Below are positions 1 through 16,677 of a stretch of 64,000 nucleotides of DNA, one piece after another (the first letter of the stretch is position 1; each line of letters opens with the position of its first letter). Source of the stretch: an uncultured Gammaproteobacteria bacterium (GTDB lineage Bacteria; Patescibacteriota; Microgenomatia; UBA1406; HO2-37-13b); NCBI GenBank assembly GCA_964422025.1, contig CAYQYZ010000001.1:184200-248199 (forward strand). The letters run 5' to 3'. The notes under the pieces were generated by a model. The model did no database searches and was not told the origin of the DNA. It was given only the letters and a program-made list of their open reading frames with translations. Both the position numbers and the translations under genes were made by a program.

Positions 1-832
1 TTGAAAGCCTAACCAAGTCGGTCTTACCTGAGGATGGAACCCCAACAAATAACACCCACAACATGACTGGGTTCTTGAAAAAACCCGACACTACTACTGC
101 AAGTAATAATTTTAATGCGATAGCTGAATCAGGTAAAAAGGCAAGAACCTTTTCTTCTACTTCTAAATAGGTAACTTTTTTTTCTAATAAAATAGGTTGT
201 GCAATAAGCGGAGTTTCTGTCCCGCTATTATCATCTGAAATATTACTTACTAAGTATCTTTCCGCCTTATTGCATAATTCCATAAACTCTTCTCTCGTGT
301 GCCCAAGTCTGAAAAAGTCACCAATATCTTTTACACCCAAATCTATTGGTAAGTTCACAATATATATCTGCAAAAGGGGATTTTGCTTTCTGAGAATTTC
401 AGCAACTTTCGGTGCACCATTGCGCCCAGCAACATCGGCATCGTAAACGATATAAAGTTTGTCCAAGTTTTTGAAGGATAAAGCAAATTCTTCTTTAAAT
501 CCATTTACTCCCCCCGTTGTCGTTATTGCTGGGATTTCAAATGATTCGCAAGTCAAGCAGTCAAGTTCGCCTTCACATAATACACACCACTCATTGCTTG
601 GTAGTGTAGAAGTAGGATAAAGAGTAACTGGAGTGCGTGATGGGTTAATATACTTGTTGCCGACATTCCAAAGTGGGCTTCTTCTAATCTTATATTGCGT
701 TTCATCAGTTTTGGGATTTTTAATAGGAATATAAAGTCGTCCAGCATCAAAACCAATCCCTCTGCTTTCCCAAACCAGTCGCTTAATCATATGTTCCTTT
801 TCGAGAAATTTAACCCAATCATCGTGGCTCAT
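1..832 (-). CDS. Phage/plasmid-type DNA primase-helicase (Toprim domain followed by P-loop NTPase). Partial: C-terminus lies beyond the window start
   Basis: Manual minus-strand translation from ATG at 832 is open to position 1. It gives Toprim motifs (CEGELDCL, YIVYDADVAGR) and a Walker A (GVPSSGKT) at the window edge. The ORF track only shows an internal wrong-frame ORF here. Confidence 0.65.
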   Translation of the reverse strand, partial: MSHDDWVKFLEKEHMIKRLVWESRGIGFDAGRLYIPIKNPKTDETQYKIRRSPLWNVGNKYINPSRTPVTLYPTSTLPSNEWCVLCEGELDCLTCESFEIPAITTTGGVNGFKEEFALSFKNLDKLYIVYDADVAGRNGAPKVAEILRKQNPLLQIYIVNLPIDLGVKDIGDFFRLGHTREEFMELCNKAERYLVSNISDDNSGTETPLIAQPILLEKKVTYLEVEEKVLAFLPDSAIALKLLLAVVVSGFFKNPVMLWVLFVGVPSSGKTDLVRLS

Positions 833-837
833 GCTTT

Positions 838-1086
838 TCATAAATTGTTAAGCAACTCACATGCGTGAGTAAATGTATAACTAAATTTCCTCATTACAAA
901 GTCAATTGCATTTCCACGTGCTTGGCAACCAAAACAATAAAAAGTGTTATCAGGATAGATATAGAATGATGGAGTCCTCTCATCGTGGAACATGCATAAG
1001 GTACATCTTTTACCGCCAATATTCCTTATTGGGGTTTCAATTAAGCTAGTAAAATCCTTTTTTCTTAATTCGTTTAAATTAATCAT
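838..1086 (-). CDS. CHC2-type zinc-finger protein (DnaG/primase N-terminal Zn-binding domain), separate ORF directly upstream of the Toprim ORF
   Basis: 82 aa with C-x2-C...C-x-G-C spacing (CTLCMFHDERTPSF...FYCFGCQARGNAIDF) typical of the primase zinc ribbon. Its stop at 838-840 overlaps the ATG at 832 of the Toprim ORF in another frame. Confidence 0.6.
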   Translation of the reverse strand: MINLNELRKKDFTSLIETPIRNIGGKRCTLCMFHDERTPSFYIYPDNTFYCFGCQARGNAIDFVMRKFSYTFTHACELLNNL

Positions 1087-1197
1087 GTCCCTATTTAATC
1101 ACATTGGGAAAAACCTGTCACTTTGGCTCGGTGACTTATTCGTGCCTGAAATTTTGCGAAATAATTTACTGGTGACTTTTTGGGAGGTTAAAATGAC

Positions 1198-1680
1198 TTA
1201 TTTATGCTTAACTTCTTTCGATGCTTGTATGGTTCGGGGAGAATATATAAGTTGATAAAAAGAATCTATTTTTAAACCATTATTTTTTTCTGTATCAATC
1301 GTAAAACCCCAAATTACAATTTTGCGCTGCAATCTTCCCTTTAATTTTGAGCAGGCCTCTGTTGGAACATCTATCCGTAAACTACGGAGGCTATGAGGTT
1401 CTAAATCAGAAAGAATATCAAGAAGAGACCTTTCTTTTTTTCCTAATTTTGCTATTTTCTTAATTCTAGCTAGTTCCTTTTGTGTTGTCCTTTTTGGAAC
1501 TTTCTTTAAGATATCACTAGATTTATCTGGTATTAATGGAGTGTGTTTATTGGATAATCTTTTATTGATTTTTTTTAATTCCTTAAAGATGTCGTCGTTT
1601 TTCATTACACCTGTTACCATACCAGCAGGATTTTGTATTAAATCATAATCTTCCTCTGGGAAGTAATTGGTATCTACCAT
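1198..1680 (-). CDS. Hypothetical protein, 160 aa, lysine-rich, no recognised domain
   Basis: ORF track; same strand as the primase module, so likely co-operonic. Confidence 0.4.
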   Translation of the reverse strand: MVDTNYFPEEDYDLIQNPAGMVTGVMKNDDIFKELKKINKRLSNKHTPLIPDKSSDILKKVPKRTTQKELARIKKIAKLGKKERSLLDILSDLEPHSLRSLRIDVPTEACSKLKGRLQRKIVIWGFTIDTEKNNGLKIDSFYQLIYSPRTIQASKEVKHK

Positions 1681-1710
1681 AAAAAAAGCCTCTGTGGTGG
1701 TGCACAGAGG
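1681..1710 (-). terminator. Rho-independent terminator downstream of the 1790..2452 gene
   Basis: Inverted repeat cctctgtg / cacagagg (1689-1696 and 1703-1710, 6-nt loop), followed on the minus strand by a T7 run (A-run 1681-1687 on plus). Confidence 0.55.
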
Positions 1711-1789
1711 ACTTTCTCTACAATTATATTATAGTTGCACCACCAACTGTTTGTTCACTATTATATACCCATTTAAAGCGTTACGAGCA

Positions 1790-2452
1790 TTAGTTTCCTG
1801 CACATGAAGAAGCAGCCATCATCACATCAGAAGGAAATTGATTAGTTCGTTTATACTCAGCTTCAATTTGCGCAAATTCATGCATCACATAGTTCGTCTC
1901 AAAGTAGTTAAGAAGACAATTACAATAGTGCTGTTGTTGACTGAGATCTATATCACCAATATTTTTATAGCAACTATTTAAAAATGCGGTGCGCACGGTT
2001 ACTGGATACACATTACCGATTTTGCTAGTAGGAATAGCTGCTGCATGACTTTCCGGTTCTCCGAATTGATTTATAGCTGTTTCAGTTTCTGTATTTTGAG
2101 TATCAGTAGAATATTGTGTTGATGTTTTTGTATAGTCTTGTATAACCCAACCTATCACGATTAGTAAGGCTATCAATACAGTAATAATGCCTGCAGCTGT
2201 ACTCCATGATGCATCTTCCTTATTATTCTCCTTTGTTTTTGGCTTTTCATGGTAAGCCGCCTTCTCTTCTTTATCGTCGAAACCTCCTTCGATACCAATT
2301 TGTGTAAATAACCATAATACCCACGTACCAATTCCACCAAGAACGAGCCATAACACAAAGGCTAGTGCGTCTAGATGAAATAGGGAATTAACTAATTGGA
2401 ACAAGTAAAAGATGAGCCACCCAATGAAAAATATAATCCATCTCATATGCAT
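1790..2452 (-). CDS. Hypothetical membrane protein with 3-4 predicted TM helices and a Cys-containing C-terminal domain
   Basis: 220 aa. Hydrophobic N-terminus (WIIFFIGWLIFYLFQLV..., VLWLVLGGIGTWVLWLF) and a second TM (IITVLIALLIVIGWVI). Transcribed divergently from the XRE gene. Confidence 0.5.
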   Translation of the reverse strand: MHMRWIIFFIGWLIFYLFQLVNSLFHLDALAFVLWLVLGGIGTWVLWLFTQIGIEGGFDDKEEKAAYHEKPKTKENNKEDASWSTAAGIITVLIALLIVIGWVIQDYTKTSTQYSTDTQNTETETAINQFGEPESHAAAIPTSKIGNVYPVTVRTAFLNSCYKNIGDIDLSQQQHYCNCLLNYFETNYVMHEFAQIEAEYKRTNQFPSDVMMAASSCAGN

Positions 2453-2516
2453 TGTATTCTACATTCACATATACGCACATAGCAAGTAGTAATTTATGCC
2501 TAATTGCTCGCTTTAA

Positions 2517-2545
2517 GCTAGTCGCTTTTCTAGCCTTCAGCTAGC
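2517..2545. promoter_or_regulatory. Operator-like inverted/direct repeats in the divergent intergenic region upstream of the XRE regulator
   Basis: GCTAG (2517-2521) ... CTAGC (2530-2534) ... GCTAGC palindrome (2540-2545), sitting 12-40 nt upstream of the ATG at 2557. Confidence 0.3.
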
Positions 2546-2556
2546 AAAATAGTCTC

Positions 2557-2775
2557 ATGTCAGAAAGGATAACTAAAACAAAACTTAGATTGGGGAAAAA
2601 GATTCAACGAATAAGAGGTTTGCACCATCTTACTCAGGAGGAATTATCTGAAAAATTGAATATTAGCAGAACTCATCTAGGACATGTGGAACAAGGCCGT
2701 AAATCACCTTCGATGAAACTCCTAGAGAAAATAGCAAAAATACTTAAAGTAAAACCTCAGGATCTTTTTCCTTAA
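2557..2775 (+). CDS. XRE-family (Cro/CI-like) helix-turn-helix transcriptional regulator
   Basis: 72 aa. LGKKIQRIRGLHHLTQEELSEKLNISRTHLGHVEQGRKSPSMKLLEKIAKIL is a canonical HTH_XRE pattern (Q-x-x-L-A...S...I...E-x-G). Divergent from the primase/membrane gene set. Confidence 0.8.
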   Translation: MSERITKTKLRLGKKIQRIRGLHHLTQEELSEKLNISRTHLGHVEQGRKSPSMKLLEKIAKILKVKPQDLFP

Positions 2776-2899
2776 AAATATTTTGCGTATTTAGAAGGGG
2801 GTAGACTATAGCGTTGTCAATATTACTTTGGGTGGGGTAGGGGTCTCTTATGAGGGTATTTGGATCTCGATTTGCTTAAATTATAGTATAATCTTAGAC

Positions 2900-3331
2900 A
2901 TGGATAAAAATACATCACAACTTCGCTCTGTATCTGCTATTACTGCAACTACAGCACATAATGCAGTTAGCGTTGCTTTTGCAGAAGCAACAAAAGCAGG
3001 TGTTAATATTTCTGTTGCGGTGGTAGATACGTCCCTTACACTTATTGCCTTCGCTAAAGGCGATGGTTCTACTGCTCATAGTGCAGAAACAAGCAAACGA
3101 AAAGCGAATACAGCAGCATCTACTGGAAAAGCAACAGGTTGGATGGATTCAAATCTTGCCACAACGCTTCCTATGGCTTCAGGAAACATACTGACCAATA
3201 TTCCAGGTGGTGTTCCGCTTCGATTCGATGGAGTTCTCGGCGGTGGACTGGGAATTGCTGGCGGAACGGTTGAACAAGATAACGCAATCGCTCACGCTAC
3301 TTTGCTTGCTATTGGCGCTGATACTGCTTGA
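2900..3331 (+). CDS. GlcG/HbpS-like (DUF336) putative heme/cofactor-binding protein
   Basis: Gly/Ala-rich pattern (AAHNAVSVAFAEATKAGVNISVAVVD...GGVPLRFDGVLGGGLGIAGGT) typical of DUF336. I chose the internal ATG at 2900. The ORF-track start at 2828 adds an implausible N-terminal extension. Confidence 0.55.
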   Translation: MDKNTSQLRSVSAITATTAHNAVSVAFAEATKAGVNISVAVVDTSLTLIAFAKGDGSTAHSAETSKRKANTAASTGKATGWMDSNLATTLPMASGNILTNIPGGVPLRFDGVLGGGLGIAGGTVEQDNAIAHATLLAIGADTA

Positions 3332-4746
3332 TACGTGTTTTGTCGCAATCCGTGAATATTATTTCTTCTCTTTTTGACAGTTTCTTCATCTGTCCCTGCA
3401 GTAACCAAAATATTTCCCAACTCCATGCCTTGGGGTGTTGCAACGTAGTACGGAGCGAATCTATTGATAACCATAAGCTCTTTCGGTTTCGAGCGACTAT
3501 TACGAATGTGACTTACGGGGAATCGTGCAGACTCTTGGAATCGTTGAATAACCCAATAGCTTCCGCCATCCAGAGGTTCAGTAAGTGCGGATTCTAGCGC
3601 CCGTTTCCACGAATCAAGGTGAACATCTTCTGAGATTACCAAACCCTTTGATCCGGTTGAACCATCCGTATCTCCACCCCGTTTTAATACCATTTGGAAT
3701 TCTGGTTTTAATTGTGCGACATCATCAATAGTAAATTGCTCTGATCCGATTCGTACTAAACTACTAGTTGAATCGACTACTCCTGTAGGCGCATGCAAAT
3801 CCTGTAAATCTTGCTGTCGATCAAATACTGTTCCGTAAGCAGGATCAAAAAGTGTGCTCAGTAAGATTTTATCCGACAATGGCAATACGGATCCCAACAT
3901 ATCAACTTTGCCGTGCAGAGATGCTCGTACAAGTGCAACTTCAGATTCAAAACTTTTTCCTTTACTAAAGCCTGGGAGCTTGAATTCTCGATCAACAACG
4001 TCAAGTACAATTCGATTGCCGTCCTCTTCAAGGTATACTACATCTTCGCCGTATCTAATGTCGGACAATCGAGCAGTACGCCACGTAATTCCACGCCGTT
4101 TTCCTATTTCGGATGCAATCCGTGCAAAATATCTATTTTGCGAATCATACTCATTTCTGTAATCATCGGGGAGTATGGTAGCTACTTGAATAACTCCTTT
4201 ACCTCCGTGTCTTTGGCTAATTTGTCTTACGAATAATTGAGCTAGATTGGCTCCAATAACTTCCTTTCCTAAAAACTGTCGTGAATAATCGTTGACTCCT
4301 TGAGTATTGCCTTTATCAGCGCCACCATCTGCATTGTATTCAATAACAGTAAAGTCACCATTCGCATCAATAATCATGTCAGGACGTGAACTAAATACCC
4401 GTTCACCTTTCTTTGCCGCTTCAATCCACAATGCAATTGTTTCATCTGGAACTCCTGCAGTTATATATCGATTGAGTTGTTGTAATGATGGAGATAAATT
4501 TCGAGTACTTGGATTCAGTGCATTTCGTAGTAATGAAGCTGATCCATGGTGAAATGAGTGAATTAGCTCAGGTACATCCGTACCAAGAAATAATTCTTGC
4601 CTTTCAGTTACCTCATGAGTATTGAGTGCCAATGTCCAAGAAGCATCACCATTATCACGGGGTTTATCGCCATAGTAAAGATCATGCTCAGTTAAGTAAC
4701 CTTCAATTTGCGATGCAATTAGTTGTGGATCGTATTCGTTTTTCAT
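3292..4746 (-). CDS. Glutathionylspermidine-synthase family (pre-ATP-grasp, GspS/YgiC-like) protein
   Basis: 484 aa. The EYNAD motif (FTVIEYNADGGADKG) recalls the conserved LLEYNADTP of GSP_synth/YgiC-type ATP-grasp enzymes. No search was possible, so the family call is tentative. Confidence 0.45.
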   Translation of the reverse strand: MKNEYDPQLIASQIEGYLTEHDLYYGDKPRDNGDASWTLALNTHEVTERQELFLGTDVPELIHSFHHGSASLLRNALNPSTRNLSPSLQQLNRYITAGVPDETIALWIEAAKKGERVFSSRPDMIIDANGDFTVIEYNADGGADKGNTQGVNDYSRQFLGKEVIGANLAQLFVRQISQRHGGKGVIQVATILPDDYRNEYDSQNRYFARIASEIGKRRGITWRTARLSDIRYGEDVVYLEEDGNRIVLDVVDREFKLPGFSKGKSFESEVALVRASLHGKVDMLGSVLPLSDKILLSTLFDPAYGTVFDRQQDLQDLHAPTGVVDSTSSLVRIGSEQFTIDDVAQLKPEFQMVLKRGGDTDGSTGSKGLVISEDVHLDSWKRALESALTEPLDGGSYWVIQRFQESARFPVSHIRNSRSKPKELMVINRFAPYYVATPQGMELGNILVTAGTDEETVKKRRNNIHGLRQNTYQAVSAPIASKVA

Positions 4747-4922
4747 ACCATAAAAAAACCCCGCCTTTGCGGGGTTAGCAAAAAGAAAAGATAGTGTACT
4801 AACTATCTACCCCGCAAAAAGGCAGGGTGCAACAACAAGGACTATTTAAATTTGTATTTTTCGCTTTCATGATGTGTATTGTATTTTACTCGTTCCTAAA
4901 AAGCAACTGCATTGTGCTTACT

Positions 4923-5423
4923 ATGAAAGGGCAGTATACTTTAAACATGATTACGACAATCCTATCAGATTTCTCTCGTGTTATTCTAAATCCAAAGGAT
5001 TCGACATATCCAGGCTCACTTAACGGACTGTATAAGGAATTAATAGCACGTGGAAAAGAATTTAATTTCGATGATTATTATGTTTTTAATGATGAGCTGC
5101 TTGAGATTTATGAGGAACTTAAACAAAAATATTCAATGAATATTTTTACTAGCGGCTCCATTCAGAAAAATTCTTCAGAAGTCCGAGCAAGAATCGATCC
5201 AATTTTTGAGAATATATTTACAGCACAGGATTATGAACTTAATAAGGAAGATCCACACGCATATCTTTTTATTGCTGAAAAATTAGGAGTCAAACCCGAA
5301 GAAATTCTTTATATTGACGATCTTAGGGAGAATGTGGATGCCGCAGCAAAAGCAAATTTGGTTGCAATGCAGTTTATAACAAATGGAGAGTTGAAAACAG
5401 TTATTCGTGAAATTCTGCTGTGA
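4923..5423 (+). CDS. HAD-superfamily hydrolase-like protein
   Basis: C-terminal YIDDLRENVDAAAKANL resembles HAD motif III/IV. I chose the internal start (MKGQYTLNMITTILSDFSRV), because the ORF-track start at 4827 adds a hydrophobic extension. Motif I is degenerate. Confidence 0.4.
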   Translation: MKGQYTLNMITTILSDFSRVILNPKDSTYPGSLNGLYKELIARGKEFNFDDYYVFNDELLEIYEELKQKYSMNIFTSGSIQKNSSEVRARIDPIFENIFTAQDYELNKEDPHAYLFIAEKLGVKPEEILYIDDLRENVDAAAKANLVAMQFITNGELKTVIREILL

Positions 5424-5451
5424 TAATGGCGTCCAAATATATATTTGCTGT

Positions 5452-5910
5452 TTATCTCCTGACTTCTGCGAGCATCTCTTGAGACTGGGTTTCTACATTC
5501 TGTAATTCCTCCAAAACCTCTTCGTATGTAAGTGAGTTTAGTTGAAATGCGAAGGTATGATCAAGCTCATGTGTTCTATCAACATATACACCTTTCAGCT
5601 TAAGAAGCTCGATATTTGCCTTTAATACAGTTTCTGCGCTGATTTTTTCAGGTTTGAAATTGGCAATTGTGCCAATATTACTTGTAACCGCAGACACGGA
5701 TAGACCTTGCGCGCTCAAAGCCTCGTCTATTGCCTCTCTAACCTCAGGTTTACGGAGGTTCTCGCTTCCTATTGACGTTGCAACAGCTCTACTTTTTACA
5801 TCGTAGGATTGCATTACAGCATCGGTAGGAGATTCACCACTCATTACATGTTTAACAAAAACTGCTTGTTTCCGTGTGAGTTTTTTATTAAGTTTTGTTT
5901 CTCTACCCAT
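5452..5910 (-). CDS. Phage terminase small subunit (TerS-like)
   Basis: 152 aa. N-terminal LTRKQAVFVKHVMSGESPTDAVMQSYDVKS matches the terminase small-subunit HTH region (LT-x-KQ-x-F...Y...NAT-x-A). No large terminase is adjacent, so it is an orphan. Confidence 0.55.
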   Translation of the reverse strand: MGRETKLNKKLTRKQAVFVKHVMSGESPTDAVMQSYDVKSRAVATSIGSENLRKPEVREAIDEALSAQGLSVSAVTSNIGTIANFKPEKISAETVLKANIELLKLKGVYVDRTHELDHTFAFQLNSLTYEEVLEELQNVETQSQEMLAEVRR

Positions 5911-5982
5911 AAATTCATTTTAGCATCATTTATCTCTAATTTCTAAGGTGCGTTTTTAAGAAGAAAGCGATATAATCGGATC

Positions 5983-7758
5983 ATGAAAAAAGATCAATAT
6001 GAAAAGCTAATTGCCGATATTGAAGCACAATCATTTGACATAAAGTATGACTTTGAGATTGCAGAAGCATTCAGTAGGCTCATTGAAGATCATAAAGATA
6101 GATTTACCACAGAGCAAGAGAAGCAACTAAAATGGGAGTTTTTACTGTTCCGGCTGATGACAAAAAACCACTTTGCATCTGACGGCTTGAAGACTGAGCG
6201 GTTTGTCCCAATGGCCACGTTCAATGATGGGAGCATTTTCCCAGATCCCAACTCATTTGCTGAGTCAGCACTTTTATACTTTGCGAGTAGAGCAAAAGAA
6301 TCAAAGAATCCAATTTTAAAAGCACGGTACTTAGATTTTTTATGGGAAAAGTCAAAGGATAAAAAGAAACATTTTTTTGCAATTGAAGCTATTGACCAGT
6401 ACTTACTTACAGTAGATTCCTACCAGGTAGAAGAAGCAATTATAGAACGGCTTGATGGCCTGCAAAGGGCGACTGAACTTGCGCTTATTTTTGAAGCTAA
6501 AAAGACCGAGCAACCACTATGCAGCAAGGTTGTTGCCAAGCTTAATGAGCTTATTGAAACAACAGCAAAGGATAAGAAATACCGATGGCTAATTGAGATG
6601 TTTGAGCTTGTTTTGACCCTTCCATCGTTCTACTCTGAAAAACAGGTTAAAGAGTTTATTTCTTTATGTGAGGCTGCTGCAGAGAGTTATCACGCTGATC
6701 AAAACTTCCATTTGCAAAGACATTTTTTGCAGCTAAAAGCAGACCTAATAAAACTCATAAACACTGCTACCAATCCTCAAAAAGCTGTGGATGAAGAGAT
6801 TGGTAAGGCCTGGATTGATGAAGCGGAAGCAAAATCTGGAAGCGGTCTTGTCAAAGTGCATTTTCTTCAACAAGCCATTGATCATTATTCCAAATTAGGA
6901 AATATGAAGAAAGTGGAAGAGCTTGTAACAGAAGTTAAAGCAGCTACTAAACAAGCCATTGATAACAAGGAGTTCAAACAGTTTTCCTCTACAGTTGAAA
7001 TGAAAAAAGAGGATGTCGAGAAAATGAAAGCAAGTCTTGGTACAGGTGAGGAAGTGCCTGAGAGAATTGGGACAGTGCCAACATTTTTCCCTAATTGGGA
7101 TCAGGCAGTAAAGATGACAGAGAAGCATCGTAAGGAGTTTGTCTTCTTGCATATGGTCAATAAGGTTAGTTATGGCCAGGAGTATCCCATAAGCTCTCCT
7201 CAAACTCCTGAGGAGCAACAGGAAGATCAAGTAATGGACAACTTCAAAATTATTGCTGACCTTTCACTCCAGTGGCTTACCAGTTTCTTAGAGGAGTTAA
7301 AAAAGGAGAAGAAAGTATCATTAAAGGATTTCCAAAAGTTTTTTTCATTTCTGAAGGCTGTTGATGAAGATACTCATGAAACTGTTTTGCAGGGATTAGG
7401 TTCATACTTCAAAGGCGATCATTTCAATGCAACTTATGTTTTAACACTACAATTGGAGGATTTCTTGAGACGATTACTTGCTGGTTTTGGGAAGGAAACT
7501 ACAATGCCTGAGAAAGGGGCTTTCAGAGAGAAAACATTGGGGCCAGTACTCCGTGAACTGAAAGTATATATCCCAGAGCCAATTTACCGGTATATTTGTT
7601 GGGTAATGGTAGATTATCGTGGCTTCAACCTGAGGAATGATATTGCCCATGGCTTTTTCAAGAAGAAGAGAGCAAACCCCATCTATTCAACTGCAGTCAT
7701 CCATATTTTCTGCCTACTGATCGCAAATACAAAGATATCTATTAAGGAGAGGAAATAA
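5983..7758 (+). CDS. Large all-alpha-helical protein with a C-terminal HEPN-like R-x4-H motif (DUF4209-like). Candidate effector of a two-gene defence cassette
   Basis: 591 aa with no Walker A. The C-terminus (YICWVMVDYRGFNLRNDIAHGFF) carries RN-x3-H. This matches the RNxxxH signature I recall for DUF4209 and the HEPN R-x4-6-H RNase motif. A 1-nt gap separates it from the next gene. Confidence 0.55.
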   Translation: MKKDQYEKLIADIEAQSFDIKYDFEIAEAFSRLIEDHKDRFTTEQEKQLKWEFLLFRLMTKNHFASDGLKTERFVPMATFNDGSIFPDPNSFAESALLYFASRAKESKNPILKARYLDFLWEKSKDKKKHFFAIEAIDQYLLTVDSYQVEEAIIERLDGLQRATELALIFEAKKTEQPLCSKVVAKLNELIETTAKDKKYRWLIEMFELVLTLPSFYSEKQVKEFISLCEAAAESYHADQNFHLQRHFLQLKADLIKLINTATNPQKAVDEEIGKAWIDEAEAKSGSGLVKVHFLQQAIDHYSKLGNMKKVEELVTEVKAATKQAIDNKEFKQFSSTVEMKKEDVEKMKASLGTGEEVPERIGTVPTFFPNWDQAVKMTEKHRKEFVFLHMVNKVSYGQEYPISSPQTPEEQQEDQVMDNFKIIADLSLQWLTSFLEELKKEKKVSLKDFQKFFSFLKAVDEDTHETVLQGLGSYFKGDHFNATYVLTLQLEDFLRRLLAGFGKETTMPEKGAFREKTLGPVLRELKVYIPEPIYRYICWVMVDYRGFNLRNDIAHGFFKKKRANPIYSTAVIHIFCLLIANTKISIKERK

Positions 7759-7759
7759 T

Positions 7760-8737
7760 ATGGTTTGGAAAATTGTTACAAAAGATATTGATCCTAATGA
7801 TCAAATAATAAAAGGACTCTTTGATGAAGCTGTTGCAGCTGCTCCGCCCAATTATGTAAAAACAATGGGTAATGGAGAGGTTGAAATGGAAGATACTGTA
7901 GCTTTGTTACCGCGTAATCCAATTAAAGGAAAGTGTCGCTTGTGTGGTCAAGAAGCCGATCTCACAAAAGAACATATCCCACCCAAGTCCAGTGGTAATA
8001 AGCAAAGACATACAAAACTAACTTTTGATGATTGGTTGAAGGATCATTTGGAAGCTAATTCCAATTCAAAGCATACTGTTGAACAGGGAGGTATTTTTGG
8101 ATACACACTTTGTCGCAAATGTAATTCACTTACAGGTAACCTGTATGGGACTGAATATAAGCTTTGGGTAGAAAGGGCACGAAAGCTTATAGATATTGAA
8201 ACTATTACCAAGTTGGACAAAATGATTGGCCCATTTGGAGATAGTCTTAATTTTGGAAGTAAAGAAGATGGTGGGGTCAAACCAGGGGCATTTGTAAGAC
8301 AAGTGCTGTCGTGCATGTGTAGCTTAAGTGGGTCGTGGGATTTAGCTGAAAAATATCCGGTACTTCGCAGGATAATTTTGGAACAGTCTACAGAAAAACT
8401 ACCTGCTGGATTAGAGATAGGTATGACAATTTACTTTGGCCCAAATGTACGCATTCATGGGCCACAGCTGAGAGTGGATAAAAAAACTGGAATATGGCGC
8501 TGGTGTCAAGAAATAGCATTTCCTCCTTTTGCATTCATGATGGTAATAGCCAGCAACAGCAAGAAGCCAGGAGAAGGTCTTCTGATAAACAACATGACAC
8601 AAGCCTCTCCAGATGAAATGCAAAACTTTACAGGTATCGTTGAAATGGGTTTTGGCTGGGCACCATATCCAGGAGACTATCGTTCAAAAGCTAGGATTAT
8701 TGCTGATCGCTCTATAAGAGATAAGATCTCAATGTGA
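7760..8737 (+). CDS. HNH-endonuclease-domain protein (HNH_5-like N-terminal domain plus ~200-aa uncharacterised C-terminal domain)
   Basis: CRLCGQEADLTKEHIPPKSSGN ... LCRKCNSLTG is the C-x2-C ... EH-I-P-x-S-x-G ... C-x2-C-N pattern of HNH nucleases. Start is 2 nt after the stop of the upstream gene. Confidence 0.65.
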   Translation: MVWKIVTKDIDPNDQIIKGLFDEAVAAAPPNYVKTMGNGEVEMEDTVALLPRNPIKGKCRLCGQEADLTKEHIPPKSSGNKQRHTKLTFDDWLKDHLEANSNSKHTVEQGGIFGYTLCRKCNSLTGNLYGTEYKLWVERARKLIDIETITKLDKMIGPFGDSLNFGSKEDGGVKPGAFVRQVLSCMCSLSGSWDLAEKYPVLRRIILEQSTEKLPAGLEIGMTIYFGPNVRIHGPQLRVDKKTGIWRWCQEIAFPPFAFMMVIASNSKKPGEGLLINNMTQASPDEMQNFTGIVEMGFGWAPYPGDYRSKARIIADRSIRDKISM

Positions 8738-8908
8738 AGCTAAGGCGTAATCCTTACTTGAGAAAACTTCAAAAAGTTGTGTCATTTCTTGTATGATCGG
8801 TTCGAGAAGCTCATCGTTAAGCACCCAAAGATAAGATGGACTTCAGAACTCCAATTTTTTTCTTGCGATTAATTTGAATCAAATAACGGCATACTATATA
8901 ATTTCAAT

Positions 8909-9511
8909 ATGGCTAAAGGGAGCAGGCAATTAAAAGTAACGTTCTTAATTATCCCACTGTTTATCGTTTTTATAGCAGCGGTTTTCTGCTCATTTTTATT
9001 CGGCATTCATTGGCAGGAAACTTTAGGAATGAAAAAACTTAATGATAACTCCATCGAGAAATTATTATGCTTTGGAGATAATAACTTTACCGAAACATTT
9101 CAATATAACTGCTATTCCCCTATAACAACTCCATTTAAAGGTTTCACTTCACATTTAGAATGTCGTGTCCTTACCAATCTTCAAATGAATTCACAATCAT
9201 CTAAATATAATGAACTAATGACAATTAAAGCTGACTATATAAAATTTTCTTTGAATTTTAGCAAAAACATGACCCTTATTGAGCAATCACTCCAGCCTGG
9301 AGAACCCGTAAAAGAACTTTATAAAATTGTTGAAAATAACGAAAATATAATTCATGGAATTAGAAATACAAGGCTAGATGATTTTCACGCTGAAGAGTAT
9401 GAATTTATCACACTTTCGAAGAAGACTGGCAAAGGAATGGTTTCTTGGATATATAGTCAAGATAATTTGAATAGTGATAATATTGCTTTAGAATTTTTTC
9501 AATGTAACTAG
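8909..9511 (+). CDS. Hypothetical protein with N-terminal signal anchor, in an AT-rich region
   Basis: 200 aa with N-terminal TM (VTFLIIPLFIVFIAAVFCSFLF). No recognisable domain. Confidence 0.4.
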   Translation: MAKGSRQLKVTFLIIPLFIVFIAAVFCSFLFGIHWQETLGMKKLNDNSIEKLLCFGDNNFTETFQYNCYSPITTPFKGFTSHLECRVLTNLQMNSQSSKYNELMTIKADYIKFSLNFSKNMTLIEQSLQPGEPVKELYKIVENNENIIHGIRNTRLDDFHAEEYEFITLSKKTGKGMVSWIYSQDNLNSDNIALEFFQCN

Positions 9512-9584
9512 ATTTAAACTATTTGGGATCGAAATATCTATCCGGTCACCCGTGACAACCTTCTTAGAATATTCCTCCATCACA

Positions 9585-10163
9585 TTAGAGCACAAGTATA
9601 TACAGATGAGAAAGTAGGTAAAGAATCGAATCTAGTGCAACTGAAATTTGAGTATCTCGCTCAGGCACCAAGCCCATGGGTGATATAAAATATCTGTTTG
9701 TTTCTGAAACTGTTTGTACTACGATGTACCAATTTTCACTCTCTTTAGCTATAAAGGAACGAACAAATTTGCCACTTACTTGGGGAATTTTGAATCCATG
9801 TGTTTTTCCTTCATGTACAAGATTGTCTGTGCAAAATGAAGGATTATTGCCCACCGAAGAAACATACATTGTCGATATAAACACACAACCAGATGGAGTA
9901 ACTACATCATCGATTCTGTCATGATCCATATCTACTCGCACAACATGGGGTAAATTCCAATCTGATATCGAATAAATTTTACTGTATCTATGGAATACAG
10001 AAAATTGATCAAATGTTGGTACTATAAATGTAAGAATATTAGAGCAAAAAACAACAATAGCAGTAATTAAAAAGATCGAAAGCAATATGTAAATGCCAGG
10101 GTACTTCTTAACAAGAGCTTTTTTGAAAATCTTTTTATAATTCATTTCAGATAAGTTTATCAT
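9585..10163 (-). CDS. Hypothetical membrane-anchored protein
   Basis: 192 aa with N-terminal TM (GIYILLSIFLITAIVVFCSNILTFIV). No recognisable domain. Confidence 0.4.
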   Translation of the reverse strand: MINLSEMNYKKIFKKALVKKYPGIYILLSIFLITAIVVFCSNILTFIVPTFDQFSVFHRYSKIYSISDWNLPHVVRVDMDHDRIDDVVTPSGCVFISTMYVSSVGNNPSFCTDNLVHEGKTHGFKIPQVSGKFVRSFIAKESENWYIVVQTVSETNRYFISPMGLVPERDTQISVALDSILYLLSHLYILVL

Positions 10164-10270
10164 ATTGCTATATGGGGTATTTGTGTTCTGAATTCGTCCG
10201 CCCAGTCACCCCGCATGTTTTTAACCCTGTCTTTCTTGAATCCTGCGCAAATTAGGCCAATGAGCCATGT

Positions 10271-10786
10271 GTGCTGTATAATCTCTCAATGTCAGAAAGA
10301 GAACACACAGTATTAAAAGTAACGTCAAGAGTATTTCGTGAGGAAATTTCTGCTGCAGGAATTGTTCCATTTATTGAAGATCTCGTTGCAGAAGAACGTG
10401 GTTTTCCAATATATCAAAGATTGCATGAACAACTCGATGAAGATGGGTTTCCAATAATTCCAAATCCACTTCTAACATACTGCGGTTCTGGCACATTACC
10501 TCTACTTGCACATCCAATCAGTGACGTAGGAGCCATAGCTGTAGTAATTGGGGATAAAAAGTTAGTATTTGATCCTAAGGGGCCTCCTCCGCATGATTTG
10601 AGAGACAATTACCTTTGGTCCTTTTCCCCATATGACTATTACATAGATCCAAATCAGAGAGAATTATTAAAGCTATTCAAAAAAGCTGGCTACTCATTGT
10701 GGGAATCAACAGATTCATGGCAATTTGGTATGGCTGTTTTTCACGGTCAAGATTTCGCTTTAGGCCCTCGATTAGATAACTTGTGA
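10271..10786 (+). CDS. Hypothetical protein, 171 aa
   Basis: ORF track. Flanked by short TCCGCCCAG direct repeats (see findings). Confidence 0.4.
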   Translation: MLYNLSMSEREHTVLKVTSRVFREEISAAGIVPFIEDLVAEERGFPIYQRLHEQLDEDGFPIIPNPLLTYCGSGTLPLLAHPISDVGAIAVVIGDKKLVFDPKGPPPHDLRDNYLWSFSPYDYYIDPNQRELLKLFKKAGYSLWESTDSWQFGMAVFHGQDFALGPRLDNL

Positions 10787-10826
10787 AAAAATTTGACAAC
10801 TTAATCCATCCGCCCAGCACTTCACA

Positions 10827-11390
10827 TCACACCCTCAACAATCCCCTAAATCCTCGGGAAGCATAGTATGATTCTGCACCGTTATGATAAACGAACACAG
10901 TATCGTATCGACGATCTGCAAAACAGGCGCCTCCTAGTTTTCTAATTGATTCAGGAGTTTTAATCCAGCTAGAAGTTTTGGTATCAAATTCTCCTAATTT
11001 CTGCAGTGCGCGATATGCTTCTTCGGTTAACAATTCAATTCCCATTTCTTGAACAACCGTTACTGCAGAACCTGATGGCTTAAACTCTTTTCGCAAAGCC
11101 AAAGCGTCATTGTCATAACATAAACTTCTTCGCAGGGCAGGGGACTGTTCACTACAATCACAGAATAAATATTCATTCGACTGAGCATTAAAACCAATAA
11201 CATCCGGCTCACCACCGGTTCGTTCCATTTCGTTTAATGACCATAGTTTTCCAGAATTTTTCTCTAATTTTGCTCTCACGTTGCTCCAAACAAGCCCCTC
11301 ATGCCGAACCATGTTTTTCTCAAATCGAGTTTCCAATGTTGTAAGTAATTCATTGATTTGTTCGATTGCTAATTCCTTTTTTTGTTCCAT
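10827..11390 (-). CDS. DUF4256-like protein
   Basis: WSLNEMERTGGEPDVIGF segment resembles the DUF4256 family. I chose the start at MEQKKELAIEQ (11390), not the ORF-track 11414. Confidence 0.45.
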   Translation of the reverse strand: MEQKKELAIEQINELLTTLETRFEKNMVRHEGLVWSNVRAKLEKNSGKLWSLNEMERTGGEPDVIGFNAQSNEYLFCDCSEQSPALRRSLCYDNDALALRKEFKPSGSAVTVVQEMGIELLTEEAYRALQKLGEFDTKTSSWIKTPESIRKLGGACFADRRYDTVFVYHNGAESYYASRGFRGLLRV

Positions 11391-11420
11391 ACTAAAGTAT
11401 AGCAAATTACACATACATCC

Positions 11421-11723
11421 CTACGTTTTGATGGTCAAAAACACTTTTATATTTTTGCCTACTACTATAGCTTCTGCGCGTCGCACAGACACTTTTATAG
11501 GGAGTAAATAAGTCGCGGTTTTTGAATCGGGGAATATCGATGTATCCCACGTTGTTTTTCCTATGATTACCCGAACACGTAGCGATCCCCAACCTCGTTT
11601 CAGATCACCAAATCCATTCGTAATCTTTTCTGCAGTATTTTGAGGAACTGAAACAAAATACCAACTCGCCTTTCCAGGATACATCCACACTTTTTCATAC
11701 AAAACAAATTCTGTGTGTTTCAT
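11421..11723 (-). CDS. DUF1905 domain protein
   Basis: 100 aa. WYFVSVP...GWGSLRVRVIIGKTTWDTSIFP...YLLPIK matches the DUF1905 pattern. Confidence 0.6.
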   Translation of the reverse strand: MKHTEFVLYEKVWMYPGKASWYFVSVPQNTAEKITNGFGDLKRGWGSLRVRVIIGKTTWDTSIFPDSKTATYLLPIKVSVRRAEAIVVGKNIKVFLTIKT

Positions 11724-11812
11724 AACGTAAACTATATATCAATAATTTGCTGTACAGTGATAAATTAATCTGCTTGCATTCAGCAATTTTAACAATATAT
11801 ACTAAGTCAACT

Positions 11813-13054
11813 ATGTTAACGTATCTAGCATTCGAAATAATTGCGTCATTAATCGCTATTATATCAATCGGAGCCCTTATGTGGGAATTTCTGAAGAATA
11901 GTCATGCAACAAAGGTAATCACTTCAAAACGAGTAATACTATTACTTACAGTACTTGGACTTTCTATAAGTGTAGGATTCTTTGCTCATAAAACATATCC
12001 TCCAGCATTTGCAATGCCGCCATTTGACCATTCTCATGCTCCTGGGGAATTACCCGCATCGATTCCACTTAGCGGCATTTATAACTTTTTTAAATATCAA
12101 CATGCATTCGAAAAAGTTACCACCATTGGGGCAGATCCAAACAGCGTTCCTAAAACACCCCAAAAACCTGATTCAGATGGAATAATAAGAATTAATTTGA
12201 TTGCACAAGAAGTTATCTCGCAAATCGCGCCCGATATTTATTTTAATTACTGGACGTACAACAGGCAAGTTCCCGGACCTATGCTTCGTATAAAAGAAGG
12301 GGATACGGTGGAAATTTCTTTAACAAACCATCCATCGAGCTTGCATGATCATAACATCGATCTGCACGCAGTTACCGGCCCTGGTGGCGGCGCAAGTTTA
12401 ACCCACGTTAAACCTGGTCAAACAAAAACGTTCCAATTTAAGGCTTTAAATCCGGGATTATATGTGTATCATTGTGCCATGCCTAATGTATCTACACATA
12501 ATTCTCACGGGCAATATGGACTTATTCTTGTAGATCCCAAAAAGCCACTCGCAAAAGTAGATAGAGAATTTTATATTATGCAAGGAGAGCTTTATACAAT
12601 GGGTCAATTAGGAAAAAAAGGGCTCGTTCCATTTGATTCCAAAGCACTTCTTGATGGAAGACCAAATTATATTACATTTAACGGCATGATCGAACGTGCA
12701 CCTCGCATGGAGGCGCGTGTCGGCGATCGAATTCGCATGTACGTTGGCAATGGGGGAGTTAATCTTATTTCTTCATTTCACATAATTGGCGAAATTTTTG
12801 ACACCGTATATCCTGAAGCAAATATTGGGGGAACTATTGAAAAAAACGTTCAAACAACCGCTGTATTAGCCGGAGGAGCAACTATCGTAGACTTTACTGT
12901 TGATGTACCCGGTAAATACCTTTTAGTTGATCATGCGCTCGCCCGTATGAACAAGGGGGCATGGGCAATGCTTACGGTTACCGGACCAAAAAATGAACAT
13001 ATTTTTAAAGAAATCCCATCGGAGAACCAAGAAATGCCTAACACAATGCACTAA
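11813..13054 (+). CDS. nirK: Copper-containing nitrite reductase (NirK)-like two-domain multicopper oxidase, membrane-anchored
   Basis: LHDHNIDLHAVTGPGGGA corresponds to HN(V/I)DFHAATG (T1/T2 Cu His ligands). LYVYHCAMPNVSTHNSHGQYG corresponds to (V/F)YHCAP...H (the His-Cys pair). I chose the start at MLTYLAFEII with an N-terminal TM, not the ORF-track 11747. Confidence 0.6.
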   Translation: MLTYLAFEIIASLIAIISIGALMWEFLKNSHATKVITSKRVILLLTVLGLSISVGFFAHKTYPPAFAMPPFDHSHAPGELPASIPLSGIYNFFKYQHAFEKVTTIGADPNSVPKTPQKPDSDGIIRINLIAQEVISQIAPDIYFNYWTYNRQVPGPMLRIKEGDTVEISLTNHPSSLHDHNIDLHAVTGPGGGASLTHVKPGQTKTFQFKALNPGLYVYHCAMPNVSTHNSHGQYGLILVDPKKPLAKVDREFYIMQGELYTMGQLGKKGLVPFDSKALLDGRPNYITFNGMIERAPRMEARVGDRIRMYVGNGGVNLISSFHIIGEIFDTVYPEANIGGTIEKNVQTTAVLAGGATIVDFTVDVPGKYLLVDHALARMNKGAWAMLTVTGPKNEHIFKEIPSENQEMPNTMH

Positions 13055-13059
13055 GTCAT

Positions 13060-13677
13060 ATGTCTCGAACTACCACATTTTACCTCGTCCGTCATGGACA
13101 AAGTGTTTGGAATACTAAAGAATTAGTTCAAGGACATAATCAATCAGAAGAGAATACATTAACAGAAAAAGGGATTGCTCAAGCCGGAAACATTTCTAAA
13201 ATTTTCAAAGATGTTCATTTTGACGCAGTTTATTCATCGGACTTACTTCGTGCTAAAAAGACCGCAGAAATTGTTGCTCTAGAAAGAGAATTAGCTGTAG
13301 AAGCATCTCATAGACTACGAGAACAAAGTCATGGAGAACATGAGGGAATGCTATCAAAAGACTTTCTGGCATTATTTACTGAATGGGAAAATTTAAGCAA
13401 CGAGCAACGAATGGATTACAAAATCTCTGATTCTGCAGAAACTCCAAATGAGGCGATCACTCGATTTATGCTTTTCTTACAAGAACTTGCAATTACATAT
13501 ACAGACAAGACAATACTGGTAATTACTCACGGCACCATATTAAGAAATCTATTGATTAAATTAAATATAGAAACGTATGATTCTATTCGAAAATTTGAAA
13601 ATACTGGGTATATTAAATTGCTTGTGCAGGATGCCGACTTTATTATTAATGAAGTAGTGGGTGCAATAAGAGAATGA
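13060..13677 (+). CDS. Histidine phosphatase family protein (phosphoglycerate-mutase-like)
   Basis: N-terminal FYLVRHGQSVWN (RHG catalytic motif) and a later HG (ITHGTIL). Confidence 0.7.
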   Translation: MSRTTTFYLVRHGQSVWNTKELVQGHNQSEENTLTEKGIAQAGNISKIFKDVHFDAVYSSDLLRAKKTAEIVALERELAVEASHRLREQSHGEHEGMLSKDFLALFTEWENLSNEQRMDYKISDSAETPNEAITRFMLFLQELAITYTDKTILVITHGTILRNLLIKLNIETYDSIRKFENTGYIKLLVQDADFIINEVVGAIRE

Positions 13678-13685
13678 AGAGGTAA

Positions 13686-14312
13686 CTAGATTCTATTTTT
13701 ATTTAGCACATTCATTAGTTCTCTGGAAGACTCATTAGGAGTCTGTGAATCATACGCAAACGTTTGCCATCCAAAATCTTGAGCTGCTTGTAAATGCTCC
13801 AGACTATTTTCTATAAATAAAATTTCTTCATTTTTAACTCCTGATACTTGTTGAGCAATTTCATACAATCTCTTGTCAGGTTTTTGAAATCCAATCTCAC
13901 TTGAATCAAGAATTATTTCCCATTTTTCCTTTGGGGGGATTAATTTCTGTTCAAATAATGTTGAAAGCATTCGCGGATACATGTTCGTCAAAAGTCCAAT
14001 TCGATACTTTTTTGCAACAGCATCGACCACCGGCCAAATTGACGTGTTAACCGTAAATCTTTTTATAAAACTATTGAGCAATGAATAGTTCTCAGGTAAA
14101 TCAAGTCCCACCTCGGATCTAAATAGAGGAACCAGTGAATCTACATCACAATCAAGACACACTTTATTTTTATATCGACTCCACACATGTTCCCATGCCG
14201 CATTGTTGTCTTCATTCACGCCCATTTCTTTTTTCAATTCTTCCCATTTATTTGTACCTGAAAAATCGAGCATCGCAACTCCACCGACGTCAAAATATAT
14301 AAATGAGATCAT
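13686..14312 (-). CDS. HAD-superfamily hydrolase
   Basis: FDVGGV (motif I DxGGV-like), GLLTN (motif II) and ILFIENS...AAQDFG (motif III/IV region). Confidence 0.6.
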   Translation of the reverse strand: MISFIYFDVGGVAMLDFSGTNKWEELKKEMGVNEDNNAAWEHVWSRYKNKVCLDCDVDSLVPLFRSEVGLDLPENYSLLNSFIKRFTVNTSIWPVVDAVAKKYRIGLLTNMYPRMLSTLFEQKLIPPKEKWEIILDSSEIGFQKPDKRLYEIAQQVSGVKNEEILFIENSLEHLQAAQDFGWQTFAYDSQTPNESSRELMNVLNKNRI

Positions 14313-14358
14313 TGATAGATTATAACAAAGCTATTTGGTTATCTGATATACTCCATAC

Positions 14359-15252: not shown

Positions 15253-15289
15253 ATTTGACAATCCCCACACACTTCCGTAAGATTAATAT

Positions 15290-15892: not shown

Positions 15893-15932
15893 AACTATTG
15901 AACAGACCGGAAATGTGGAGTAAAAATACTAC

Positions 15933-15960
15933 TTGACATTTCTATAGGACGTGGTATACT
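15933..15960 (+). promoter_or_regulatory. Sigma70-type promoter (-35 TTGACA, 16-nt spacer, extended -10 TGgTATACT) upstream of the 16059 gene
   Basis: TTGACA at 15933-15938, TG at 15952-15953 and TATACT at 15955-15960. The ~90-nt leader contains a hairpin plus T-run (see findings). Confidence 0.45.
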
Positions 15961-16058
15961 TTATACAGATCCTAGGGTTTGTCGATAGCTTTACCGACAT
16001 GCTCTGGGATCTTTTTTTGTAGTAAAGAATATCCTATAGCATAGAGGTTGTAATTACT

Positions 16059-16604: not shown

Positions 16605-16613
16605 TATACTTCT

Positions 16614-16676
16614 TGCTCGGGTGGTGATCCGCCAGCTGGCGGATGGTATACACGCAGAGTATAAGGAACAATTGTT
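16614..16676 (+). repeat. Tandem partial copy of the tRNA-Leu 5' half (acceptor and D arm), carrying a 16-nt palindromic insertion
   Basis: tgctcgggtggtga[tccgccagctggcgga]tggtatacacgcag matches tgctcgggtggtga[aat]tggtatacacgcag of the intact tRNA 63 nt downstream. It diverges after the anticodon-stem 5' side. Confidence 0.5.
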
Positions 16677-16677
16677 T

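Follow-up and report, generated by a model that had tools for sequence, protein, structure and literature searches.

Gene content of the element

We describe here a compact integrative element that extends from the left into a stretch of DNA of 64,000 nt, the whole of which is called the window (contig CAYQYZ010000001.1 of assembly GCA_964422025.1, forward-strand positions 184,200-248,199). The element is inserted site-specifically at the 3' end of a tRNA-His gene, has the gene content of a phage satellite and is not a prophage; among its genes is one for a homologue of the small subunit of phage terminase (TerS), as judged from the comparisons given below. The host belongs to the Candidate Phyla Radiation (CPR), the protein of the neighbouring DUF4256 gene (10827..11414) being 99% identical to one named 'Microgenomates group bacterium'. 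The open reading frames (ORFs) of the window were searched against Pfam, PHROGs, PADLOC and NCBIfam, and selected proteins were used for profile searches against the PDB; names with L denote loci or contigs fetched from GTDB genomes, from metagenome and Logan contigs, and from IMG/VR viral contigs. The core genes and sites lying in the window are the following.

1..832, minus strand: primase-helicase, N-terminal 277 of 628 amino acids, open at the left edge (Toprim_2, 7.7e-10)
838..1086, minus strand: CHC2 zinc-finger protein, 82 amino acids, a primase zinc-binding domain as its own ORF (Zn_ribbon_DnaG, 2.6e-16)
1198..1680, minus strand: 160-amino-acid protein of the replication operon (no match in Pfam, PHROGs, PADLOC or NCBIfam)
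1790..2452, minus strand: membrane protein, about 218-220 amino acids, first gene of the leftward operon (hydrophobic N-terminus; no family match above cutoff)
2453..2556, no strand assigned: divergent control region, 104 nt (GCTAG-N8-CTAGC and a GCTAGC palindrome at 2517..2545)
2485..2456, minus strand: promoter-like site for the leftward operon (promoter scan not above chance)
2557..2775, plus strand: XRE/Cro-CI-type helix-turn-helix (HTH) regulator, 72 amino acids (HTH_3, 2.3e-15)
5452..5910, minus strand: TerS, 152 amino acids (Terminase_2, PHROG 51, SF6 TerS profile and fold, homologues in phage context)

The gene at 5452..5910 had been called an orphan TerS in the first-pass annotation, and this assignment survived comparison by hidden Markov models, by structure and by gene context. 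The protein passes the Pfam family Terminase_2 narrowly, scoring 28.0 against a gathering score of 26.1 along its N-terminal 56 positions, and it matches PHROG 51 (terminase small subunit) at 1.8e-11, while the profile of its family matches the solved TerS structures of phage SF6 in the PDB at 1e-9. Its predicted structure is all-helical, and the N-terminal domain fits the SF6 DNA-binding domain with a TM score of 0.83, other small terminases giving weaker fits. A tblastn search found the annotated TerS of Lactococcus phage TP712, with 36% identity across residues 10-101. Full-length homologues (39-40% identity, residues 1-149) are present on two IMG/VR contigs, L031 and L032, where the TerS gene is followed by genes for the large terminase subunit (TerL; Terminase_6C) and a P22/SU10-type portal protein, and in L032 also for a Mu gpT-type capsid protein. 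The proteins of elements and of phages have in common an invariant LKANxELL core, which lies outside the HTH domain. On the basis of these sequence relationships, we regard the protein as a true homologue of phage TerS proteins whose genes adjoin those for TerL, portal and capsid.

The TerS family to which this protein belongs is a large one: about 30 full-length homologues have 40-53% identity with it, and an exhaustive profile search gave 53 representative clusters at E <= 1e-30. Among 130 distinct relatives for which the context could be read, 17 lie in serine-recombinase elements and 17 strictly adjoin TerL or portal genes, and many more are found on viral contigs with large ORFs downstream. 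In a neighbour-joining tree the TerS of elements and of phages are interleaved, and the clade of elements that includes the window's own has the TerS of phage contig L031 as its sister. Scans of viral contigs with TerS alone and with the helicase alone, each as a single protein, gave nothing useful. No gene for TerL, portal, capsid, tail or lysis proteins was detected with Pfam and PHROGs from position 1 of the window to about 31 kb, a span that includes the part of the element in the window and the flank searched to its right; none was found between the att sites either, and the earlier statement that the TerS gene has no TerL, portal or capsid gene nearby is borne out.

The left part of the element was recovered from a Logan contig of 19.5 kb (L001), found by an exact-protein look-up, which matches window positions 1..11086 at 100% identity and reaches 2.76 kb further left. 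It supplies the rest of the primase-helicase, an ORF of 61 amino acids and the gene of a large serine recombinase, which has 520 amino acids or more. The first-pass annotation had seen no integrase and supposed that one might lie left of the window, and the recombinase is found exactly there. It has the resolvase catalytic domain (Resolvase, 2.8e-32), the recombinase domain (Recombinase, 2.4e-08) and the zinc ribbon (Zn_ribbon_recom, 2.6e-04) that characterise large serine recombinases, a class of about 450-700 amino acids; of the NCBIfam models, CcrB and XisF come nearest, with scores far under their cutoffs.

The other early gene calls in this part, namely a Toprim primase fused to a P-loop helicase, an upstream CHC2 zinc-finger ORF and a divergent Cro/CI-type XRE regulator, were all borne out by the domain matches listed above, together with a Walker A motif (GVPSSGKT) at the very left edge of the window. 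The primase part of the 628-amino-acid protein has PDB profile matches to the DnaG and T7 gp4 primases. In the AlphaFold model (pLDDT 81) the C-terminal 400 residues group with MCM-type AAA+ helicases, and the best Foldseek matches of the model are MCM2-7, T7 gp4 and Twinkle, so that the protein is predicted to consist of a DnaG/T7 gp4-type Toprim primase, an MCM-like AAA+ helicase and a C-terminal winged helix. The CHC2 ORF overlaps the Toprim ORF by 4 nt, and the identical split is found in the relative L004 (57% identity). These two proteins form the primase-replicase module of the element; a search of the element for iterons or origin-like repeats found none. The slot of the 160-amino-acid protein is occupied in relatives by unrelated ORFs of similar size.

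The XRE gene is divergent from the leftward operon, and homologous XRE genes are found at the equivalent place in relatives. The operator-like GCTAG repeats reported earlier are present between the two transcription units as three sites (GCTAG, CTAGC and GCTAGC) within 29 nt (2517..2545). Only this local cluster is notable: the pattern was picked after the fact, and across the whole window the pentamer GCTAG is not enriched (54 found against 65 expected). Promoter and terminator scans gave results at chance level, and no homologue of Stl or AlpA was detected in the element.

Integration site and boundaries

With its last codons the recombinase gene enters, in antisense orientation, the 3' end of the tRNA-His gene, 2733 nt to the left of position 1, and this junction is attL. 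The contig L001 ends within the T-arm of the tRNA and, in the sense of the tRNA and with a slash at the junction, reads CGCGGGTTCGAGCCCCGTCGGTCACCC/ATAACGAGGG (in short form ..GGTTCGAGCCCCGTCGGTCACCC/ATAACGAGGG). The tRNA part is identical to the 3' part of the tRNA-His in L189 (assembly GCA_964413645.1), and on the element side stands a motif, TAACGAGGG, that also follows the tRNA end in L009 and L011. These are the two closest relatives, with recombinases 69% identical to that of the element, and in both of them the final 55-61 nt of tRNA-His(GTG) are covered on the opposite strand by the recombinase ORF.

The locus L189 provides the empty site. It is syntenic with window positions 10823..16763 (76-100% nucleotide identity, the tRNA-Leu being identical), and its tRNA-His stands directly against the stop codon of the DUF4256 gene, near-identical homologues of which are found in related Microgenomates assemblies. 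Because tRNA-His abuts DUF4256 in L189, the approximately 13.6 kb from the tRNA-His 3' end to position 10826 are an insertion in the genome studied here. Within them are three degenerate copies of the tRNA-His sequence from T-loop to 3' end, designated R1, R2 and R3, which divide the insertion as follows; the four junctions are listed with them, those of attP and attB being predictions.

9522..9551, plus strand: attR (R1), degenerate tRNA-His copy ending in CCGGTCACCC; the terminal 9 nt match the tRNA-His 3' end at attL exactly
9585..10163, minus strand: orf192, apparent leftover of an older insertion, between R1 and R2
about 10180..10212, no strand assigned: R2, degenerate tRNA-His copy, from alignment with tRNA-His
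10271..10786, plus strand: orf171, apparent leftover of an older insertion, between R2 and R3
about 10792..10824, no strand assigned: R3, degenerate tRNA-His copy abutting the DUF4256 stop codon, at the place of the original tRNA end
attL junction: tRNA-His...GTCGGTCACCC/ATAACGAGGGATGGG
attR junction: ...ATCTATCCGGTCACCC/GTGACAACCTTC
predicted attP junction: ...ATCTATCCGGTCACCC/ATAACGAGGG
predicted attB junction: tRNA-His...GTCGGTCACCC/GTGACAACC

The current element extends from attL to R1; it has a length of 12.3 kb and contains 14 genes, including those for TerS, PDC-S39, the HNH protein and orf200, and all of its ORFs are intact. Of the span of 1..8737 originally given for the element, therefore, the gene calls stand and the right end does not, since the element ends near 9551. 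The segments with orf192 and orf171 seem to have remained from two older insertions at tRNA-His. Another locus, L191, from a related strain, matches the window only to the right of 10202, so that of these two segments it shares only the inner one, and it has at that place a remnant of its own that closely resembles R1.

The evidence for attR is composed of several parts. A long direct repeat of the tRNA end was not found in the window, and a blastn-short search for the tRNA end gave only a 9-mer at 9543..9551, where about 0.2-0.7 such matches would be expected by chance; the 9-mer is credible because the empty site and the remnant in L191 place it in a series of three remnants. Three occurrences of the motif CCRGKCACCC were counted in the window, where 0.07 would be expected; R1 and R2 account for two of them and are the only ones within the first 28 kb. 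This test is partly circular, the motif having been derived from those sites. At the acceptor end, GGTCACCC appears to contain the crossover, and the tRNA-like part of R1 may be the element's own attP arm. GC content and skew have no step at the edges of the element.

An island reaching as far as the tRNA-Leu at 16678, where the Logan contig ends, was also considered and ruled out: the recombinase end borders on tRNA-His and not on tRNA-Leu, and 10823..16763 consists of host DNA, being syntenic with L189. Rightward of about 11 kb the window has ordinary chromosomal genes (trigger factor, ThrRS, PheRS and FG-GAP surface proteins), and a 16S rRNA gene starts at 62937. Two observations on this flank may be recorded. 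Homologues of the DUF4256 protein in Firmicutes, Bacteroidota, Chloroflexi and Ignavibacteriales share about 70% identity with it, a conservation across phyla that is unusually high for a gene of CPR bacteria and suggests horizontal transfer. The intact tRNA-Leu gene (16678..16764) is immediately preceded by a partial duplicate of its 5' part (16615..16659; GCTCGGGTGGTGA...GGTATACACGCAG), which could be the scar of another integration or a local duplication.

Relatives in CPR genomes and cargo genes

The helicase of the element has at least 148 homologues, all in CPR bacteria (e.g., Daviesbacteria, Roizmanbacteria, Woesebacteria, Levybacteria and Gottesmanbacteria), in which it is fused to Toprim, fused to PrimPol or stands alone. 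When 22 loci (21 GTDB genomes and the window) were compared, the order XRE, small ORFs, helicase, an ORF of about 60 amino acids and serine recombinase was found in at least 17. TerS is present at two of the 21 GTDB loci, L007 and, weakly, L023. When the search was started from TerS, all six context look-ups and many metagenome loci had the TerS gene beside XRE and a serine recombinase 1-6 kb off, with no TerL or portal gene, and 17 distinct element contexts of TerS without structural genes were collected. The replication module of TerS-bearing relatives is of the window's type in L007, L127 and L185, of a DUF3987 type in L188 and of an AAA_25 type in L027 and L029. Because only two of the 21 helicase-type GTDB relatives have TerS, the family is a mosaic in which the TerS-bearing members form one subset, much like the tycheposons discussed below.

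The relation of recombinase to tRNA seen at attL recurs throughout the family. Among 30 distinct recombinases of at least 400 amino acids from the fetched loci, 15 overlap with their last 12-65 nt the 3' end of an antisense tRNA gene, and four more run into a contig end; in L023 a tRNA-Phe lies on the opposite strand wholly within the last 130 nt of the recombinase ORF. At least twelve different tRNA targets were counted, among them those for Asp, His, Gln, Trp, Ile, Met, Tyr, Glu, Lys, Leu and Phe. In L111 the end of tRNA-Tyr recurs as an exact direct repeat of 16 nt, which bounds 7.5 kb, with three genes beyond TerS. Exact and degenerate repeat searches in 17 relatives gave a clear repeat only in this case and perhaps an 11-nt one in L007; short att repeats are to be expected because serine recombinases exchange strands over 2 bp. 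The 7.5-kb contig L107 is not circular. The ends of four independent short-read contigs (L001, L006, L185 and L188) lie inside the T-arm of a tRNA (GGTTCGA...), just past the recombinase, and this recurring assembly break hides the integration site in metagenome assemblies.

An alignment of the helicase, searched against IMG/VR viral contigs, gave no match belonging to the helicase family. One distant phage homologue (452 amino acids, 25-26% identity, profile E = 2e-38) was found at L031 3496..4854, placed between the TerS and TerL genes of a contig that also has a portal gene; by its sequence similarity it links the replication module of the elements to phages.

Several further observations concern the elements at tRNA-Asp. 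A non-coding block of 70-85 nt with 81-87% identity, which is not a tRNA, is shared by L029 (8853..8937), L105 (89..158) and L109 (8827..8910) about 1.1 kb upstream of TerS, where the neighbouring sequence has diverged; candidate roles are those of an attP arm, a promoter or a small RNA. In L109, some 300 nt past the intact tRNA-Asp overlapped by the recombinase, there is a second, degenerate copy of tRNA-Asp at 17625..17689, in which stretches of 28 and 17 nt match exactly. L029 and L109 have an element of the same type (recombinase genes 79% identical at the DNA level) between homologous host genes (PolX/LemA and a LysM protein), but the element is oppositely oriented relative to these genes in the two loci, which suggests a local inversion or an independent insertion.

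The remaining genes of the element in the window are listed here; all but orf200 are regarded as cargo.

2900..3331, plus strand: HbpS-like gene (Pfam)
3292..4746, minus strand: protein of 484 amino acids (no family match)
4827/4914..5423, plus strand: HAD hydrolase (Pfam)
5983..7758, plus strand: DUF7380 and DUF4209 protein, PDC-S39 (PADLOC PDC-S39, 2e-46, 157 bits, residues 19-568)
7760..8737, plus strand: HNH-motif protein (HNH_5, 27.5, exactly at cutoff)
8909..9511, plus strand: orf200, 200 amino acids, final gene of the element, with the HNH gene before it and attR after it (no family match)

PDC-S39 and the HNH protein form a candidate defence operon (5983..8737), divergent from TerS. 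The pair had been described as 'HEPN-like'/HNH accessory cargo, and comparison with the empty site places it within the inserted DNA. The three genes between XRE and TerS, which are not of phage type, had not been mentioned in the first-pass annotation; their region (2900..5423) is absent from the empty site in L189. In most relatives TerS directly abuts XRE, and one gene is inserted there in L111 and in L130, that of the 7.5-kb tRNA-Tyr element L111 (10563..11216) being an HNH_3 and AP2 gene that resembles homing endonucleases. PDB sequence searches with the 484-amino-acid protein, PDC-S39 and the HNH protein gave no matches, and NCBIfam added no assignment for the ORFs lacking a family match.

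Relatives have defence-type genes of other kinds at the same end. In L185 (2082..3659) the TerS end holds an OLD/Gabija/AriA-like ATPase, in L025 (7680..8964) a retron-type reverse transcriptase with an HTH partner, and on the matching side of L009, which is without TerS, a 1357-amino-acid HTH-Mrr-STAND NTPase is found (3564..7637); other relatives have there genes without assigned function. PICIs (phage-inducible chromosomal islands) and P4-like satellites have slots for accessory and defence genes, and the position of the cargo in the window resembles those. The genes near TerS (PDC-S39 and HNH; HbpS-like, HAD and the 484-amino-acid protein) are candidates for cargo that benefits the host.

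Interpretation and comparison with known elements

With modest confidence, we lean toward the view that the element is a phage satellite, i.e., that a helper phage packages this self-replicating tRNA-His island of about 12.3 kb in a Microgenomates chromosome; it is in any case the best current candidate for such a satellite in CPR bacteria. Induction and packaging by a helper are inferred from the gene content and from the homology of the TerS to those of phages. In the mechanism that we propose, the XRE protein would bind the GCTAG palindromes and keep silent the divergent leftward operon, which comprises the genes for the membrane protein, the 160-amino-acid protein, the CHC2 protein, the primase-helicase, the 61-amino-acid ORF and the recombinase. 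Upon derepression, probably caused by infection with the helper phage, the recombinase would excise the element, possibly with the 61-amino-acid ORF as its directionality factor, and the primase-helicase would replicate the excised circle. The element's TerS would then recognise element DNA and recruit the large terminase of the helper, capsids of the helper would take up the DNA, and after transfer the recombinase would re-insert it into tRNA-His.

Several findings weigh against the proposal that the element is a satellite. Excision, circular forms, encapsidation and the helper phage are all postulated from the genes. The Pfam score of TerS is marginal and limited to the DNA-binding domain, the neighbour-joining tree carries no support values, and the nearest phage TerS are only about 40% identical and come from phage contigs without a known host. 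Neither a pac site, nor a gene for redirection of capsid size, nor a replication origin was identified in the element, and, apart from the one distant phage homologue, the helicase family had no match among the IMG/VR viral contigs. Most elements with this helicase are without TerS, and some TerS-bearing relatives (L025, L145, L161 and L165) are without any replication genes; TerS could therefore serve the recombinase or regulation instead of packaging.

The last point leads to an explanation that we regard as possible, if rather doubtful, namely that the element is a phage-independent self-replicating island, comparable to a cargo-type tycheposon or an integrated plasmid, which spreads by transformation, vesicles or cell contact and in which the TerS-like protein is a repurposed HTH protein acting as a regulator, a directionality factor or a factor binding the origin or a partition site. 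It would account for the constant position of TerS beside XRE and near the recombinase even in elements of about 3 kb (L145, L161, L165 and L178), the minimal ones consisting of XRE, TerS, a small ORF and the recombinase without replication genes; for the lack of TerS in L009 and L011, whose recombinases target the same tRNA-His; for the absence of the helicase family from the viral contig collections searched; and for the limitation of the strongest match with solved TerS structures to the HTH domain. However, the similarity to phage TerS encoded beside TerL and portal extends over residues 1-149 and includes the LKANxELL core outside the HTH, and a directionality factor would more conventionally be sought in the separate conserved ORF of about 60 amino acids that immediately precedes the recombinase gene. 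Moreover, the TerS clades of elements are scattered among those of phages, which suggests repeated exchange with phages; in a satellite such exchange is expected, because the protein must match the packaging motor of the helper.

Two other origins were weighed, and both seem to us very improbable. If the element were a decayed prophage, i.e., a temperate CPR phage that has lost its structural genes and retained those for integration, replication and TerS, the presence of TerS, primase-helicase, XRE and serine integrase would be natural, since all of these occur in temperate phages, and so would the combination of a related TerS and a distant helicase homologue on the phage contig L031. Decay, however, is hard to reconcile with the intactness of all ORFs, with att sites bounding the element 12.3 kb apart, with the lack of any detected fragment of TerL, portal, capsid, tail or lysis genes, and with the recurrence of the same compact layout at no fewer than 17 TerS loci and no fewer than 17 helicase loci, in many CPR lineages and at many tRNA targets. 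The other origin, equally far from probable in our judgement, is that unrelated insertions have built up a patchwork at a tRNA hot spot, with TerS and the defence genes coming from a different, older insertion than the recombinase and the replication module. Tandem accretion is real at this tRNA-His, as the remnants R2 and R3 bounding orf192 and orf171 attest, and three apparently metabolic genes do lie between XRE and TerS; against this, the motif search of the first 28 kb found no att-like remnant between the recombinase and R1, the adjacency of TerS to XRE and the co-occurrence with the recombinase are conserved in relatives, and a gene between TerS and XRE is likewise found in L111 and L130.

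A large part of bacterial diversity belongs to the CPR bacteria, whose genomes are tiny and whose mobile elements have been little studied. In a literature search of incomplete coverage we found no paper on satellites or on tRNA-targeting serine-recombinase elements in these bacteria. We are evenly divided on a broader proposition, that these are the first satellites of CPR bacteria (Patescibacteria), forming a large modular family of tRNA-targeting serine-recombinase elements of which those with TerS take over the terminase of CPR phages and have anti-phage genes as cargo. If this is true, phage satellites extend to ultra-small episymbionts, adding a third level of parasitism (a satellite of a phage of an episymbiotic bacterium), and the movement of defence genes and small metabolic modules among genomes without conjugation systems is explained. 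The reading of the recombinase ORF into the 3' end of its target tRNA gives exact predictions of attB and attP, and the boundaries, being known to a few bases, make excision and packaging checkable in existing read sets. The family would also be a natural library of serine integrases, each aimed at a different tRNA gene, which may be of interest for genome engineering.

Of the early description of the element as a PICI-like satellite, the part that stands is that it is an integrative element with an integrase and TerS and without structural genes; it is at most a candidate for a PICI proper. Like PICIs of the SaPI type, it is a discrete element bounded by att sites (12.3 kb, where PICIs are about 10-15 kb) with an integrase at one end, a divergent gene for a putative regulator (XRE, where PICIs have the Stl, AlpA or MerR type), a primase-replicase module, TerS near the far end and then accessory or defence genes, an arrangement for which the PICI model of SatelliteFinder likewise places accessory genes after terS (PMC10085698). 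Of the packaging genes by which PICIs are recognised (TerS and/or a capsid-morphogenesis gene) it has TerS, no capsid-morphogenesis gene having been found in the element, and Pfam and PHROGs gave no tail, holin or other structural or lysis gene to about 31 kb. Unlike PICIs, it has a large serine recombinase in place of a tyrosine integrase, encoded by the last gene of the replication operon and not paired with the repressor; it has XRE in place of Stl or AlpA; and no capsid-morphogenesis genes or interference genes of the Ppi type were recognised in it. Most satellites in the SatelliteFinder survey come from Proteobacteria and Firmicutes, and the word Patescibacteria is absent from the main text of that paper (PMC10085698).

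Other systems are closer in particular respects. The virion-encapsidated integrative mobile elements (VEIMEs) and the PLEs are also small integrative elements that have an integrase and a primase/helicase, their TerS homologues being closest to phage TerS, and serine recombinases are used by VEIME module 3 and by PLEs (PMC9618062). VEIMEs, however, are defined by their recovery from virus particles, whereas the present element is known from its genes alone, and PLEs are restricted to Vibrio cholerae and phage ICP1, with a different set of core genes; the likeness to both is drawn from their descriptions. The minimal members of the present family (3-7 kb; cf. L145, L161, L111 and L029) recall the PICMI minimalist satellites of Vibrionaceae, which are very small, with reduced gene content and no capsid-remodelling genes, and differ in host group and apparently in gene families, again as compared by description only (PMC10803314).

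The closest in function and layout are the PICI-like tycheposons, to which the element is likened by description. Both integrate at tRNA genes, have the integrase beside the tRNA and leave partial copies of it, here tRNA-His and the distal copies R1-R3 in tandem array; both have swappable primase/helicase modules, include terS-carrying and cargo-only members in one family and accrete in tandem, and the tycheposon size of 10-20 kb includes that of the present element. The differences are that every member here has a large serine recombinase with its ORF running into the tRNA, whereas the integrases of tycheposons in Prochlorococcus and other marine bacteria are tyrosine recombinases in 910 of 937 cases (Hackl et al., bioRxiv 10.1101/2020.12.28.424599); that the hosts are CPR bacteria and not cyanobacteria; and that the helicase, unlike those of both tycheposons and PICIs, is specific to CPR bacteria.

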